From Escherichia phage vB_Eco_OMNI12, in sequence record OL362041.1: a stretch of 64,000 nt of DNA. One strand, 5' to 3'. Positions 5,024-51,251 of this stretch are shown piece after piece. Position numbers and translations under genes: made by a program. How positions within the stretch are numbered: the stretch's first letter is position 1; each line of letters opens with the position of its first letter. The notes beneath the pieces were generated by a model. The model did not search any database. It was not told the DNA's origin and worked only from the letters and a program-made list of their open reading frames with translations.

Positions 5024-5587
5024 TTATTTACCTAGTTTACTTATTATAGCTTCTGCAGCAGCTTTTAGCTTAGATGCAGTGTTAATACGATTTTTAATTT
5101 CAGTATACGCATCGCCAAGAACATCAAGGCTATCAGAATAAACACTTACACTATTGCGTTCGCTATTTGAAATAGAACCTTTAGTTTTGCGGTCAAAATC
5201 GGTGTACACGTCTTGAAGATCGCGGGCTGCCTTCTTTGCATCATCCAATGCATCAAGAGCTTTATTCAAAGCATTAACGTATTTTTTAGTGTCGAACATA
5301 TTCTTAGAAATTTTAACAGGTGCGCGTTCAGGAGTAGCTAACACAGATTTAGGAACCTGAGCGCCAGATGCCAATTTCTTAGAAATTTTGAAAAATGCTT
5401 TATTGAATTTATTTTCTTGACTCATTGTAAAAGAACTATTATCGATGTTGTACATTTCAATAGCTTTAGCTTTCCACTTAAGAAAATCGCCGCGGTCTTT
5501 TGGGTCCAATTGGAAGAATACTTTAGTAAGATCTGCTTCAGATGGTAATTTTGCTGCTTCGGTTAAAAATTCGGCATAGGTTTTCAT
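5024..5587 (-). CDS. Internal-protein-like capsid-packaged protein (N-terminal CTS-like MKTYAEFLTE)
   Basis: 187 aa; N-terminus fits T4 internal-protein capsid targeting consensus; RBS AAGGA upstream. Confidence 0.6.
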   Translation of the reverse strand: MKTYAEFLTEAAKLPSEADLTKVFFQLDPKDRGDFLKWKAKAIEMYNIDNSSFTMSQENKFNKAFFKISKKLASGAQVPKSVLATPERAPVKISKNMFDTKKYVNALNKALDALDDAKKAARDLQDVYTDFDRKTKGSISNSERNSVSVYSDSLDVLGDAYTEIKNRINTASKLKAAAEAIISKLGK

Positions 5588-11530: not shown

Positions 11531-11579
11531 ATGTTTCTCCTCAAATTTAGTTAAGATTATAACACATGAAACTGAAGCA

Positions 11580-12110
11580 TTAAACTTCCGCTATAATTTT
11601 TCCATCTTTTTCTACTTGAAAATACGTATAAGGAATCGTTGCTGTACATACTAAAGCCGGGTCTGAATCTTCTGTGTAGCTAAATTCTACTTCAGACAGG
11701 TCAGAAACCCAAGGCTTATAAAAATTTATTGACATCACGATTTCAGTTTTGCTATTATCTAAAATGTAAAGCGTAATGTATTCAGGACCTGTTTTTTGGG
11801 CAGTATTTTCACCTGTAAGATAGTTGCTAGTTCCTAGCATCCATTCATACATTCCTATCCATGACTTAAGTTCTTCATCAACTATAAATCTCACGATGAG
11901 TGGATCGTACTCAAATGTAGCACCTGGACGTTGTGCTCGGCCCAGTCCAAACGGCCCAGTCACGGTATCAGTAACAGGTATTCTAATTCCTGGAATAGGA
12001 ACTGACTGAGCATTTAAAGTAAAAGCAGATGTAGTATTACTATGTGGTATTGATACTACAAAGTTAGTTGTATTTGCTTGGTTAAAAATTTGTTGCAGTG
12101 CTTGCGACAT
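11580..12110 (-). CDS. 3: Tail completion / sheath stabilizer gp3
   Basis: ORF track 11580..12191; start placed at MSQALQQIFNQ (176 aa) with GAGGAA RBS. Confidence 0.85.
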   Translation of the reverse strand: MSQALQQIFNQANTTNFVVSIPHSNTTSAFTLNAQSVPIPGIRIPVTDTVTGPFGLGRAQRPGATFEYDPLIVRFIVDEELKSWIGMYEWMLGTSNYLTGENTAQKTGPEYITLYILDNSKTEIVMSINFYKPWVSDLSEVEFSYTEDSDPALVCTATIPYTYFQVEKDGKIIAEV

Positions 12111-12216
12111 ATATTCCTCATAATGCTTTATAACTGTTGGTGGTATAATGGGTCTAAGTCCCTTCCATTCAATTCCAATTAGAACAAACAATAGAAAAGA
12201 ATGGAAGATAATAGAA

Positions 12217-13041
12217 TTAAATATTTGACCAGACTTTGTTTGCAGAGAAACGTTTTCCTTTTGAAACGAACTGCTGAAGTGGCATTAACACAACGTTCGC
12301 CCAGTCTTTCGGGGCGATTTCAACAAGGCTACCCATAATATTACCAGGTATATATGCCTTAATCATTTGGTCTGCACCCCTAAATCCTTTCACTTGACTC
12401 CAATCAATTTTTAATTTCGTTTTATTAGTAATAGTAGGTGTATTTGAATATTGCTTTAAAAGCTCTTCTAGGAATTGCTGGCGAGCTTTAGGTGGAATAT
12501 AGTGCAAGTTCAATCCGTACATTAAATTATGCTTACCTAAACCAAGGTAAATTATCAAAGGAAATTTATCCCAGTAAGGAAGAGTTTCCTTGTGTTTAGC
12601 ATCATAAGCAAAAGCATATATTCGTCCCGGCTGCGGGCGAACAACTTTATGTCCTTTTACTTGCTTAATAGTTTCAGCAAACCACTTTCTGGTTTTATTA
12701 TTAATTGCTGCGCCTTCATTACGAATTTTATCACGTAATGTTTGCCTGAATGAATTTATCATAAGCAGTTGTCTTTCTTGCTTATTGAGTTTATTCATTG
12801 GTTTTGATTCAAGCTTTTGAATCTTTTCAGCCGTTTTAATTCCTGAAGCATATTTTGACATTGCTGAAGTAAACGTAGAGTATTTGATTCCTCTTTCTTC
12901 AGCAAATTGCTTTCCGGTCATTCCTTTTGCTTTGGCCTTTTTATATTCAAGACCTATCTGAATCCATTTCTTTTCGTTTAATGATTGCTTAACCTTTGGA
13001 ACTTGGGGAGTGCTTTCATTAATTATTTGAAAAATAGCCAT
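12217..13041 (-). CDS. 2: DNA end protector protein gp2
   Basis: 274 aa ORF in conserved 1-3-2-4 order. Confidence 0.85.
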
Positions 13042-47503: not shown

Positions 47504-49015
47504 ATGACTGACATTAAAGTACATTTTTATGATTTTAGTCACGTGAGAATTGATTGCGAAGAAAGTACATTTCATGAACTCCGTGATTTCTTTAGCTTTG
47601 AAGCTGATGGGTATCGTTTTAATCCGAAGTACAAATATGGCCACTGGGATGGACGAATTCGTCTTTTAGATTATAATCGCCTTCTTCCATTCGGTTTAGT
47701 CGGGCAAATTAAAAAGTTCTGCGATAACTTTGGCTATAAAGCCTGGATTGACCCACAGATTAACGAAAAAGAAGAATTATCAAGAAAAGATTTTGATGAA
47801 TGGCTTTCTAAATTAGAAATCTATTCAGGAAATAAAAGAATTGAACCGCATTGGTATCAAAAAGATGCAGTGTTCGAAGGATTAGTTAATCGTCGTAGAA
47901 TTCTTAATCTTCCAACATCCGCTGGTAAATCGTTAATTCAAGCTTTGCTTGCGCGATATTATTTGGAAAATTATGAAGGTAAAATTCTTATCATTGTTCC
48001 AACAACTGCTCTAACAACTCAGATGGCTGATGACTTCGTTGACTATCGTTTATTCAGTCATGCAATGATAAAGAAAATTGGTGGCGGAGCATCAAAAGAT
48101 GATAAATATAAAAATGATGCACCGGTCGTTGTTGGTACATGGCAAACTGTAGTAAAACAACCGAAAGAATGGTTCTCACAGTTTGGAATGATGATGAATG
48201 ATGAATGCCATCTTGCTACAGGAAAAAGTATTTCATCTATCATATCAGGTTTAAATAACTGCATGTTCAAATTTGGTCTATCTGGTTCATTACGTGATGG
48301 CAAAGCCAATATCATGCAGTATGTTGGAATGTTTGGTGAAATATTTAAGCCAGTAACGACTTCTAAATTAATGGAAGATGGACAAGTAACTGAGTTAAAA
48401 ATTAATAGTATTTTTCTTCGCTATCCCGATGAGTTCACTACTAAATTAAAGGGAAAAACTTACCAAGAAGAAATAAAAATTATTACTGGGCTTAGTAAAA
48501 GAAATAAATGGATCGCTAAATTAGCTATTAAGCTTGCACAAAAAGATGAAAACGCTTTTGTCATGTTTAAACACGTATCGCACGGTAAAGCTATTTTCGA
48601 TTTAATTAAAAATGAATACGATAAAGTTTATTACGTATCAGGGGAAGTTGATACCGAAACCCGCAATATAATGAAAACCTTAGCTGAAAACGGTAAAGGA
48701 ATAATTATAGTAGCTAGTTATGGTGTATTTTCTACTGGTATTTCAGTTAAAAATCTGCATCACGTTGTTTTAGCACACGGTGTTAAATCTAAAATTATTG
48801 TATTGCAAACAATAGGTCGCGTATTACGTAAACATGGTTCTAAAACAATCGCAACAGTCTGGGACCTCATAGATGACTGTGGTGTCAAGCCAAAATCTGC
48901 TAATACTAAAAAGAAATATGTTCACTTGAACTATCTTTTAAAACACGGCATTGATCGTATTCAGCGCTACGCAGATGAAAAATTTAATTACGTAATGAAA
49001 ACAGTTAATTTATAA
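47504..49015 (+). CDS. uvsW: UvsW DNA/RNA helicase (SF2)
   Basis: 503 aa MTDIKVHFYDFSHVRIDCEES...; Walker A PTSAGKS, DECH box. Confidence 0.95.
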   Translation: MTDIKVHFYDFSHVRIDCEESTFHELRDFFSFEADGYRFNPKYKYGHWDGRIRLLDYNRLLPFGLVGQIKKFCDNFGYKAWIDPQINEKEELSRKDFDEWLSKLEIYSGNKRIEPHWYQKDAVFEGLVNRRRILNLPTSAGKSLIQALLARYYLENYEGKILIIVPTTALTTQMADDFVDYRLFSHAMIKKIGGGASKDDKYKNDAPVVVGTWQTVVKQPKEWFSQFGMMMNDECHLATGKSISSIISGLNNCMFKFGLSGSLRDGKANIMQYVGMFGEIFKPVTTSKLMEDGQVTELKINSIFLRYPDEFTTKLKGKTYQEEIKIITGLSKRNKWIAKLAIKLAQKDENAFVMFKHVSHGKAIFDLIKNEYDKVYYVSGEVDTETRNIMKTLAENGKGIIIVASYGVFSTGISVKNLHHVVLAHGVKSKIIVLQTIGRVLRKHGSKTIATVWDLIDDCGVKPKSANTKKKYVHLNYLLKHGIDRIQRYADEKFNYVMKTVNL

Positions 49016-49027: not shown

Positions 49028-49040
49028 TTTGGAGAAAAAG

Positions 49041-49271
49041 ATGTTACTAGAATTTAAACAATTTCTTTATGAAGCTTCTATTGATGAATTTATGGGTAAA
49101 ATTGCCTCTTGTCAAACATTAGAAGGTTTAGAAGAACTTGAAGCTTATTATAAGAAAAGAGTTAAAGAAACTGAATTAAAAGATACTGATGACATCTCAG
49201 TCAGAGATGCTTTGGCAGGAAAAAGAGCTGAATTAGAAGATTCAGACGATGAAGTAGAAGAAAGCTTTTAA
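49041..49271 (+). CDS. uvsW.1: UvsW.1 small protein
   Basis: ORF track 49029..49271; start at MLLEFKQFLYEAS gives 76 aa. Confidence 0.8.
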   Translation: MLLEFKQFLYEASIDEFMGKIASCQTLEGLEELEAYYKKRVKETELKDTDDISVRDALAGKRAELEDSDDEVEESF

Positions 49272-49522: not shown

Positions 49523-49747
49523 TTATACAACTCTCATATGCATATCAATGCCCATATCTTTAGAATAAAAATATTCATCAAGATATCCGGCAAATTTTCC
49601 TTTAATATAAAGAACATCTTCACCGCACGGGTGGTCGGCCAGGATACGAATATCCTGACGCTTAAGATTATGCTTTTTCATTAAGAATTGAATTTCCGTT
49701 TCAAATTCTTCTTCATAATTAAAAGCATCATCAATGTTATATCTCAT
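49523..49747 (-). CDS. Hypothetical small protein overlapping uvsY stop
   Basis: 74 aa ORF. Confidence 0.6.
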   Translation of the reverse strand: MRYNIDDAFNYEEEFETEIQFLMKKHNLKRQDIRILADHPCGEDVLYIKGKFAGYLDEYFYSKDMGIDMHMRVV

Positions 49748-50160
49748 TATTTTCCAGCCTCAAATGCTCGCATGTCTTGAATATGCTTAATAGCAAATCC
49801 ACGTGATTTAATAGCATCAAGAGCTCCGCTACAGAAATCTAATAAAATCCCCCAATACTGTAACGAGGTATCAACCTTTAAAACATCCTTATCAGCTGAT
49901 AGAACTGTCTTCATTTCTGATTTCTCGTAACGATCCATACTAAATTCATCACCATCTCCTCGTCCCGAGTAGTAGTCTAATTTAGCTTTAAGAGCAACTT
50001 TTTTCTGTGCATCAATTCTAAGCATTTCCTTTTTAATACTTGAATGCTTATTAAGCCATTTACTATATAACATCACATTATTAGCTGCTTCATACTGTAA
50101 TTTAGTCGAATCTATAAACACATCTTTCTTCAATTCTTCTTGAAGATCTTCTAATCTCAT
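49747..50160 (-). CDS. uvsY: Recombination mediator UvsY
   Basis: 137 aa MRLEDLQEELKKDVFIDSTKLQYEAANN... Confidence 0.95.
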   Translation of the reverse strand: MRLEDLQEELKKDVFIDSTKLQYEAANNVMLYSKWLNKHSSIKKEMLRIDAQKKVALKAKLDYYSGRGDGDEFSMDRYEKSEMKTVLSADKDVLKVDTSLQYWGILLDFCSGALDAIKSRGFAIKHIQDMRAFEAGK

Positions 50161-50200
50161 ATTGTTCTCTATTCAATTGTTATTGGATGGACTTAGATTC

Positions 50201-50226
50201 ATTATACCACGTTTATACGTGAAGCA
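50201..50226 (-). promoter_or_regulatory. Middle promoter for uvsY: MotA box TGCTTCA (50220-50226), 13-nt spacer, extended -10 TGGTATAAT (50201-50209)
   Basis: Minus strand TGCTTCACGTATAAACGTGGTATAAT matches the MotA-dependent middle promoter architecture. Confidence 0.6.
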
Positions 50227-50625
50227 TTATACTCTATTACTGGAAGCCAGTTGTAGTTTTATCTGCTCAATATCATCAGGGTTATCGATGACTGAAAAGC
50301 GTATTTCTACTATCAAAGTATAATCATCATAAACCGGTATTACATTAACTGCTAATTTATCAATACGTGGCTCATAGTTTCTTACTGCGCTTTCGATATT
50401 ACGCTCAACCGTGTCAGCAGTAAGAGGAGTCATATTCTCAAAAAGTTGGTCAGATAAATCGCATCCAAATTCAGGGTCAAACGGTCTTGAACCTTTTCTT
50501 GTTGTAATAATTCCTAAAAGACTATTTTTAATTGACCTTAATCCAAGTGATCTTGAAACGTCTTTGTTCCAATCCATTTTCATCTCTGGGTCAATATCAG
50601 AATAAAGCTTATTAATATTTGCCAT
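50227..50625 (-). CDS. 25: Baseplate wedge protein gp25
   Basis: 132 aa [42 protein letters not shown]... Confidence 0.95.
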   Translation of the reverse strand: MANINKLYSDIDPEMKMDWNKDVSRSLGLRSIKNSLLGIITTRKGSRPFDPEFGCDLSDQLFENMTPLTADTVERNIESAVRNYEPRIDKLAVNVIPVYDDYTLIVEIRFSVIDNPDDIEQIKLQLASSNRV

Positions 50626-51251
50626 TACAATAGCTCAAAGAATTCTTTGAGTCCTCTTATTACATGAGCGTGAGTTTTTCCACACTCTGGACATTTAATT
50701 GGAACAGCCAAATAAACAGTAGGCTTTAAAAGCATATCTTTTATAGCTACAATATCTGACTCTGTGATGATAGAATATAAATCTTCTAGTTCCTTTTCAT
50801 TTAAGTCTTCAACTGGAATGCTTTCCCCGTTAGCATGAATCGTTTCTATACATGATACTATCATGTGGGCTATATTTTTATCATCAAAAATTTTAGGGTA
50901 TCGGAATTTAATTTTAATGTCACCCAGTGTATACCAAAGGTCTTCTGGTGCATCTATTTGTGTATGTAATAGATTTATATGGGTTGGTATTTCAGTTCCG
51001 CAGGTGCACTTCCAGGAGTTTTCGTGATTAACTTCTCCAAGAGAATGCGCCCATAAATGAATCAACAATAGTTCTGATTCTTGGCGATTTAAATCTTTTG
51101 CATTTGTGCAGTCTTTGATTAGCTTTTTAACAATTACTTCTACAGAACCATTATTTTTGGCAGTAATAAGTTCTAGATATTCTTTAAGAGTAAATGCGCG
51201 ACAGTTGATTATTTTAGAACCAACTCTCACATCAAATTTGTATTCATACAT
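50625..51251 (-). CDS. 26: Baseplate hub protein gp26
   Basis: 208 aa. Confidence 0.9.

Follow-up and report, generated by a model that had tools for sequence, protein, structure and literature searches.

The DNA analysed here, referred to below as the window, is a stretch of 64,000 nt from Escherichia phage vB_Eco_OMNI12 (sequence record OL362041.1), a member of the genus Tequatrovirus. In the 2 kb around the promoter of uvsY (PuvsY), it is 100% identical to the phages vB_EcoM_G29, G4500 and G4507, and about 500 records match it at 95% identity or more. The genes found at the locus are the following:

47504 to 49015, plus strand: uvsW, helicase (Pfam UvsW_N, 3.9e-43, plus helicase domains), convergent with uvsY and ~0.7 kb downstream of it
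49747 to 50160, minus strand: uvsY, recombination mediator of 137 aa (Pfam UvsY, 4.5e-52), the gene served by PuvsY
50227 to 50625, minus strand: gene 25, baseplate wedge subunit (Pfam GPW_gp25, 1.4e-18), with its stop codon contained in the MotA box
50625 to 51251, minus strand: gene 26, T4 baseplate protein family (Pfam, 8.8e-64)

The uvsW gene of the window is a 503-aa ORF that is followed by a separate 80-aa ORF (49029-49271, plus strand); in the T4 RefSeq record, uvsW is a single longer gene (112677-114440), annotated with a note on sequence discrepancies. Two further features in the neighbourhood were considered and set aside. A hairpin, ACTGGAAGCCAGT (50239-50251), was reported by the scan as terminator-like on the plus strand, but is regarded as incidental, because it lies inside the coding sequence of gene 25, no plus-strand gene lies upstream of it, and no T-run accompanies it on the minus strand. 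Within uvsY, at about 50018-50027 on the minus strand (codons ~45-48), there is a MotA-box-like AAATGCTTAG, which is annotated as a 'mot box' in the T4 GenBank record M77695; no -10 element was found at 11-13 nt from it, and for this reason it was not counted as a promoter.

Gene 25 and uvsY are separated by a gap of 66 nt. Where this gap begins, the minus strand reads GTA TAA up to the stop of gene 25 and then TGCTTCA CGTATAAACG TGG TATAAT GAATCT AAGTCCATCC. The promoter and the region downstream of it can be divided into the following elements:

50220 to 50229, minus strand: MotA box TAATGCTTCA, at -35 to -26, matching the consensus and identical to that of T4
50207 to 50219, minus strand: 13-nt spacer CGTATAAACGTGG, ending in TGG (50209-50207), which forms a TGn extended -10
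50201 to 50206, minus strand: sigma-70 -10 hexamer TATAAT (-12 to -7), invariant across eight Tevenvirinae genera
50194, minus strand: predicted transcription start (+1, an A), placed by orthology with T4 position 115371
50100 to 50193, minus strand: leader (34 nt, to 50161) and first ~60 nt of uvsY, A+T-rich, corresponding to the downstream unwinding element (DUE) of T4 oriF; boundaries approximate

The PuvsY motif proper occupies positions 50201-50226 of the minus strand and consists, read 5' to 3', of TGCTTCA (50226-50220), CGTATAAACGTGG (50219-50207) and TATAAT (50206-50201). The preliminary description had assigned the same interval, which is indeed the exact span from TGCTTCA to TATAAT, to a middle promoter of uvsY, leaving the strand unstated. 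The distance of 13 nt that it gave is correct if it is measured to the TATAAT hexamer, whereas the distance to TGGTATAAT is only 10 nt. The overlap with the gene 25 stop codon that it claimed needs a similar adjustment: the interval 50201-50226 merely abuts the TAA (50229-50227), while the full 10-bp box TAATGCTTCA does include it, the stop codon providing the first three bases of the box.

When compared with the MotA-box consensus, (a/t)(a/t)(a/t)TGCTTtA, TAATGCTTCA shows as its sole departure a C at the weakly conserved 't', a position at which the earlier form of the consensus (t/c) permits a C (PMC2988021). The 13 nt between the box and TATAAT agree with the published spacing of 12 +/- 1, and a spacing of 13 puts the MotA box at -35 to -26 (PMC2988021). 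The -10 hexamer is preceded by TGG, and a TGn in front of the -10 is present in roughly half of middle promoters (PMC2988021). As is expected for a middle promoter, no functional -35 element accompanies the hexamer, its place being taken by the MotA box: at spacers of 16-18, the best candidates match TTGACA in 1-2 positions out of six. An early promoter of the -35/-10 type was ruled out at this site for lack of a -35, and the site is unlisted in the generic sigma-70 -35/-10 scan of the window. A late promoter was ruled out as well, because the late-promoter TATAAATA is absent from both strands between 49700 and 50700.

The spacer and the final two bases of the MotA box form an inverted repeat, CACGT-ATAA-ACGTG (50208-50221, minus strand). 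Its counterpart in T4 is CACGTT-AA-AACGTG, and both substitutions that distinguish the window from T4 fall in the centre of the repeat. The repeat is not present in the other genera that were compared, and no function was therefore attached to it.

In an A+T-rich genome such as this, a match to short promoter elements could arise by chance and have no function, and in the generic sigma-70 scan promoter-like hexamers were in fact no more frequent than in shuffled sequences. The strict pattern TGCTTNA-N11-13-TATAAT behaves differently. It has three matches on the two strands of the 64 kb, against an expectation of 0.22 +/- 0.46 from 100 dinucleotide shuffles, none of which reached three; this is an enrichment of more than 13-fold. 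One of the other matches, TAATGCTTCA-11-TATAAT, is found at 11554-11582 on the minus strand, 19 nt upstream of the start codon of gene 1 (dNMP kinase). This match (11556-11579) corresponds to P1, a middle promoter of the T4 catalogue with its start at 75393, and so provides a second internal positive control. The preliminary description had proposed that middle-mode regulation is conserved here and that PuvsY may serve as an internal control for other calls; as the strict search recovers two known T4 middle promoters, PuvsY and P1, middle-mode regulation appears to be intact in this phage.

The relationship with T4 was examined in its reference sequence (NC_000866), which aligns with the window at 96% identity over 253 columns and shares gene 25 and uvsY as flanks. 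PuvsY is one of the 58 middle promoters identified in T4, with its start at 115371 (Hinton, 2010; PMC2988021, Table 1). This position is an A, seven bases past the last T of the -10, and it aligns to position 50194 of the window. The mapping was checked by extracting the bases from -40 to +25 for 37 catalogued T4 promoters, in most of which the -10 hexamer was found at -12 to -7. The start about 7 nt downstream of the -10, on which the preliminary description had staked its reading, is thus what is found in T4. In the T4 record M77695, the same bases are annotated as 'mot box' and 'TATA_box', and in the record of phage Lutter a promoter is annotated over the same 28 nt. The architecture of a MotA/AsiA-dependent uvsY promoter, which had been recognized in the window from its letters, is therefore that of T4 PuvsY, with identical elements. 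Judging from this agreement in sequence, the element is the orthologue of T4 PuvsY.

The genes motA and asiA fall outside the 64-kb window, and their presence was consequently deduced from genomes that are identical at the locus. Phage G4507, which shows this identity over 2 kb, carries genes for a MotA-like activator and for an anti-sigma factor of the AsiA type; to judge from it, both MotA and AsiA are very likely encoded by the phage from which the window derives. MotA homologues are found in 1142 phage records.

The promoter can be followed through eight genera of the Tevenvirinae (Tequatro-, Mosig-, Gelderland-, Karam-, Teguna-, Jiaoda-, Dhaka- and Roskildevirus). All of them show an invariant TATAAT and, 12-13 nt upstream, a box with a GCT core, with an identity of the flanking coding sequences of only about 65-72%. 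In Klebsiella Jiaodaviruses, gene 25 is extended by four codons, which brings its TAA stop into the -10 TATAAT and leaves the MotA box enclosed by coding sequence. The promoter has thus been kept across at least eight genera, even where the stop codon of gene 25 has moved into the -10. Conservation among genera at about 70% flanking identity and orthology to an experimentally mapped T4 promoter together exclude a functionless chance match, to which we give no weight at all.

A different arrangement was found in Slopekvirus Matisse, where the gene before uvsY is gene 24 instead of gene 25; the gap in front of uvsY has 309 nt, is very A+T-rich and contains several copies of a repeated unit resembling TAGATCAAATAA.

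The genus Krischvirus provides a natural comparison without MotA. RB49, the type Krischvirus, has been described as lacking both motA and middle-promoter consensus sequences (Nolan et al., 2006). In Krischvirus KFS-EC, no homologue of MotA or AsiA was found (best tblastn E >= 3, against 4e-39 for UvsY as a control), and its 165 kb contain no strict middle-promoter motif, as compared with three in the 64-kb window. At the gene 25/uvsY junction of KFS-EC, the sequence TTGCAA-17-TGaTATGAT is found, that is, a host-type -35 with an extended -10. A relative devoid of MotA has thus exchanged the MotA box for a -35.

This comparison also bears on the question of whether the element could be mainly a TGn/-10 promoter, used by sigma-70 polymerase in its unmodified or AsiA-bound form independently of MotA, with TGCTTCA being incidental. 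Such a promoter is conceivable, because TGn/-10 promoters do not depend on contact with the -35 and are immune to AsiA, PrIIB2 being one case; moreover, TGG-TATAAT is a perfect extended -10, and the MotA-less Krischvirus keeps a TGn/-10 at the equivalent site. However, the MotA box of the window matches its consensus and stands at the canonical distance, and the eight MotA-bearing genera keep a box with a GCT core, which the genus without MotA has lost, gaining a -35 in its stead. In addition, the catalogue lists T4 PuvsY as MotA-dependent, and in vitro purified MotA has been shown to bind its -30 region and to activate the promoter (Schmidt and Kreuzer, 1992, as cited in the review by Hinton, 2010). 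Both T4 origins, oriF and oriG, are likewise described as driven by MotA-dependent transcription (PMC2988021). We therefore consider a mainly MotA-independent promoter to be extremely improbable. Some MotA-independent activity is nevertheless possible in view of the TGn element, which the preliminary description had passed over.

A second role of the locus emerges from the annotation of T4. The T4 RefSeq record carries at 115321 a rep_origin described as 'oriF (oriuvsY) ... primer RNA is same as transcript for gene uvsY'. This position is 50 nt downstream of the PuvsY start and maps to about 50154 in the window. The minimal T4 origin, of ~100 bp, is composed of a middle promoter and an A+T-rich DUE; the oriF transcript forms a persistent R-loop and, probably after processing by RNase H, primes leading-strand synthesis (PMC3016281). 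The origin is shut off by the end of middle transcription and by the late helicase UvsW, which unwinds R-loops (PMC3016281).

The window shows a middle promoter within the ~100 bp that would correspond to a minimal origin of the T4 oriF type, in a position and with a sequence orthologous to those of oriF. From about -30 to +170 of PuvsY, the A+T content is 70-72%, and the nearest-neighbour duplex stability in 40-bp windows ranks between the 82nd and the 90th percentile of the least stable windows, which agrees with a DUE but is moderate for this A+T-rich genome. Given that the downstream region is only moderately A+T-rich by the standard of the genome, the DUE is not diagnosable by sequence alone. 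A local minimum of the cumulative GC skew near 50-52 kb coincides with the divergence of transcription there. It fits what the review remarks on oriF, but is not independent evidence for an origin, as it only reflects gene orientation. The possibility of a structured RNA in the uvsY leader was also considered and rejected: the leader of the window is unstructured (z = +0.86 relative to shuffles), and the leaders of the window, T4, one Mosigvirus and one Jiaodavirus fold no better than shuffled sequences (z from +0.36 to +1.58).

The leader is also the place where the window and T4 differ most visibly, having 34 nt in the window and 44 nt in T4. The 10 nt of difference are due to CCAATAACAA, of which the leader of the window (50161-50193) has one copy, whereas T4 has a lineage-specific tandem pair. 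One might consequently suppose that in this phage PuvsY is a functional middle promoter that has lost its origin role, for instance through the 10-nt-shorter leader and unwinding region, as the origin activity was defined in T4, where the second copy of CCAATAACAA is present, and as the region downstream is only moderately unstable. However, only T4 and strains nearly identical to it (T4T, RB55 and RB59) have the tandem duplication, accounting for 14 of the 481 matching GenBank phage records, and among IMG/VR contigs there were none with the duplication and five with the short form. For this reason, the short leader is the common allele, and the duplication a peculiarity of the laboratory T4 lineage, so that the natural oriF is shorter than the one studied in T4. 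Furthermore, R-loop formation requires no specific DUE sequence, and heterologous unwinding elements can substitute for it (PMC3016281), while the remainder of the ~100-bp origin is identical to that of T4. As the short form is common and the DUE is not sequence-specific, a loss of the origin role seems quite unlikely.

The element is, with a high degree of confidence, a MotA/AsiA-dependent middle promoter, PuvsY, that is simultaneously the promoter half of oriF/ori(uvsY). This reading is based on sequence, position, statistics, orthology and conservation, and on the co-occurrence with motA and asiA. The start site, the MotA dependence and the origin and R-loop activity we infer by transfer from T4, whose established mechanism is applied to the window phage because of the near-identity of the sequences. 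The interpretation given in the preliminary description is accordingly supported, yet incomplete, in that it omitted the role in oriF/ori(uvsY).

According to the T4 model, a few minutes after infection AsiA would remodel region 4 of the host sigma-70, so that a -35 could no longer be read. MotA would bind both TAATGCTTCA (-35 to -26) and the sigma-70 C-terminus, and TGG-TATAAT would be read by regions 2 and 3 of sigma-70. Transcription would start at the A in position 50194 and yield the uvsY mRNA with its 34-nt leader. Some of the transcripts would presumably remain paired with the A+T-rich template immediately downstream and so form a persistent R-loop, whose RNA, processed probably by the phage RNase H, would prime leading-strand synthesis leftward, that is, in the direction of uvsY; the displaced strand could then admit the gp41/61 primosome. 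The origin would be silenced as middle transcription stops and the late helicase UvsW, encoded ~0.7 kb away, unwinds the R-loops.

PuvsY of the window is already known, and there is nothing biologically new about PuvsY itself, although other middle-promoter calls in the window can be judged against it as a positive control. The only part of the analysis that could lead to something new concerns two conserved, uncatalogued, antisense promoters that resemble it.

These belong to a small sub-family of middle promoters that share with PuvsY TGGTATAATGnnTCTAAGTCC. The block that defines the sub-family, TGGTATAATG-nn-TCTAAGTCC-n-T(T)CCA, reaches into the first ~12 transcribed bases. In Tequatroviruses there are three strict copies of the block, namely at PuvsY/oriF, in the gap between genes 3 and 2, and in the gap between srd and modA. 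The gene 3-gene 2 copy lies on the plus strand at 12121-12170 of the window (about 75965-76010 in T4) and has the form TAATGCTTTA-13-TGGTATAAT, a perfect consensus. Its motif (12124-12149, plus strand) is identical in T4 (75968-75993, plus strand) and is situated in the 106-nt gap between gene 3 (about 11580-12110, minus strand) and gene 2 (12217-13041, minus strand), pointing against both of these late genes. The block from -15 to +12 of this copy, TGGTATAATGggTCTAAGTCCcTTCCA, is a close match to PuvsY: the two forms TGGTATAATG-gg-TCTAAGTCC-c-TTCCA and TGGTATAATG-aa-TCTAAGTCC-a-TCCA give a local alignment score of 42, against a maximum of 32 for shuffled sequences. Within the 64 kb, CTAAGTCC is found only at PuvsY and in the gene 3-gene 2 gap. 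The third copy, which was seen in complete T4-like (Tequatrovirus) contigs and lies outside the window, is represented in T4 (NC_000866) by AAATGCTTTA-12-TGGTATAATGAATCTAAGTCCTTCCA on the plus strand at 11860-11907, with the block at 11885-11902, and is directed antisense into modA.

Neither the gene 3-gene 2 nor the srd-modA copy appears in the catalogue of 58 promoters (Hinton, 2010). Both recur in RB69 (Mosigvirus) with site and orientation unchanged, and there they carry an RB69-type variant of the block that also matches the RB69-type uvsY promoters. A related case was observed in Dhakavirus-like IMG/VR contigs, which contain TGCTTTA-13-TATAATGGGTCTAGGTCCTTCC (576-597 in one contig, 5265-5286 in another) ~4 kb downstream of uvsY and on the same strand; this promoter carries the block after its -10, and the uvsY promoter of the genus itself has a weaker version.

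Two stronger interpretations of the block were considered and abandoned. The first is that the block specifically marks the promoters of replication origins. Of the 37 mapped T4 middle promoters examined, PuvsY alone has the strict block; that of PnrdC.7 contains one mismatch, at the oriG promoter P34i the block is loose and shifted, and at P56/69, the promoter of oriA, it is missing. With only a loose block at P34i, none at P56/69 and a motif defined post hoc, this interpretation is unsupported. The second, that the gene 3-gene 2 copy is a duplicate of the whole of oriF including the DUE, was rejected since the similarity fades after about +15; when only the downstream parts of this copy and of oriF were aligned, the score was marginal, being reached by six of 1000 mononucleotide shuffles.

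It may still be speculated, at rather long odds, that the PuvsY sub-family includes antisense members that could be unrecognized promoters of R-loop primers or of dedicated antisense RNAs. The antisense copies are proposed as primer promoters because the primer promoter of oriG is also antisense to a late gene; if this were true, the shared initial transcribed sequence would be relevant to the role as primer or antisense RNA. No literature on the two antisense copies, or on an 'anti-late RNA', was found, and in the T4 RNA-seq literature examined we found no mention of uvsY.

Among the known systems, T4 PuvsY is the closest to the promoter of the window. The two share their position at the stop of gene 25 and the 5' end of uvsY, the MotA box TAATGCTTCA, the TGG, the TATAAT, the 13-nt spacing and the first 16 transcribed bases; besides the leader length, they are distinguished by two substitutions in the spacer, where the window has TATAAA and T4 has TTAAAA. 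As regards T4 oriF, the sequence is orthologous over the entire ~100-bp minimal origin, and the gene of the R-loop helicase UvsW is adjacent, the difference being that the candidate unwinding region of the window is 10 nt shorter, but otherwise identical to the T4 DUE.

The uvsY promoter of Krischvirus (RB49-like phages) shares with that of the window the site between gene 25 and uvsY, and keeps the TGn and the -10; it differs in that TTGCAA at 17 bp replaces the MotA box, in a phage without MotA and AsiA. The promoter P34i (start 153011) of the other T4 origin, oriG/ori(34), differs in its setting, lying inside late gene 34, antisense to it and outside the window, and its similarity to PuvsY downstream amounts to little beyond a loose and shifted GAGTTCC. 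P34i has, however, the same TGCTTCA-13-TATAAT layout as PuvsY, and is likewise a MotA-dependent promoter of an R-loop primer.
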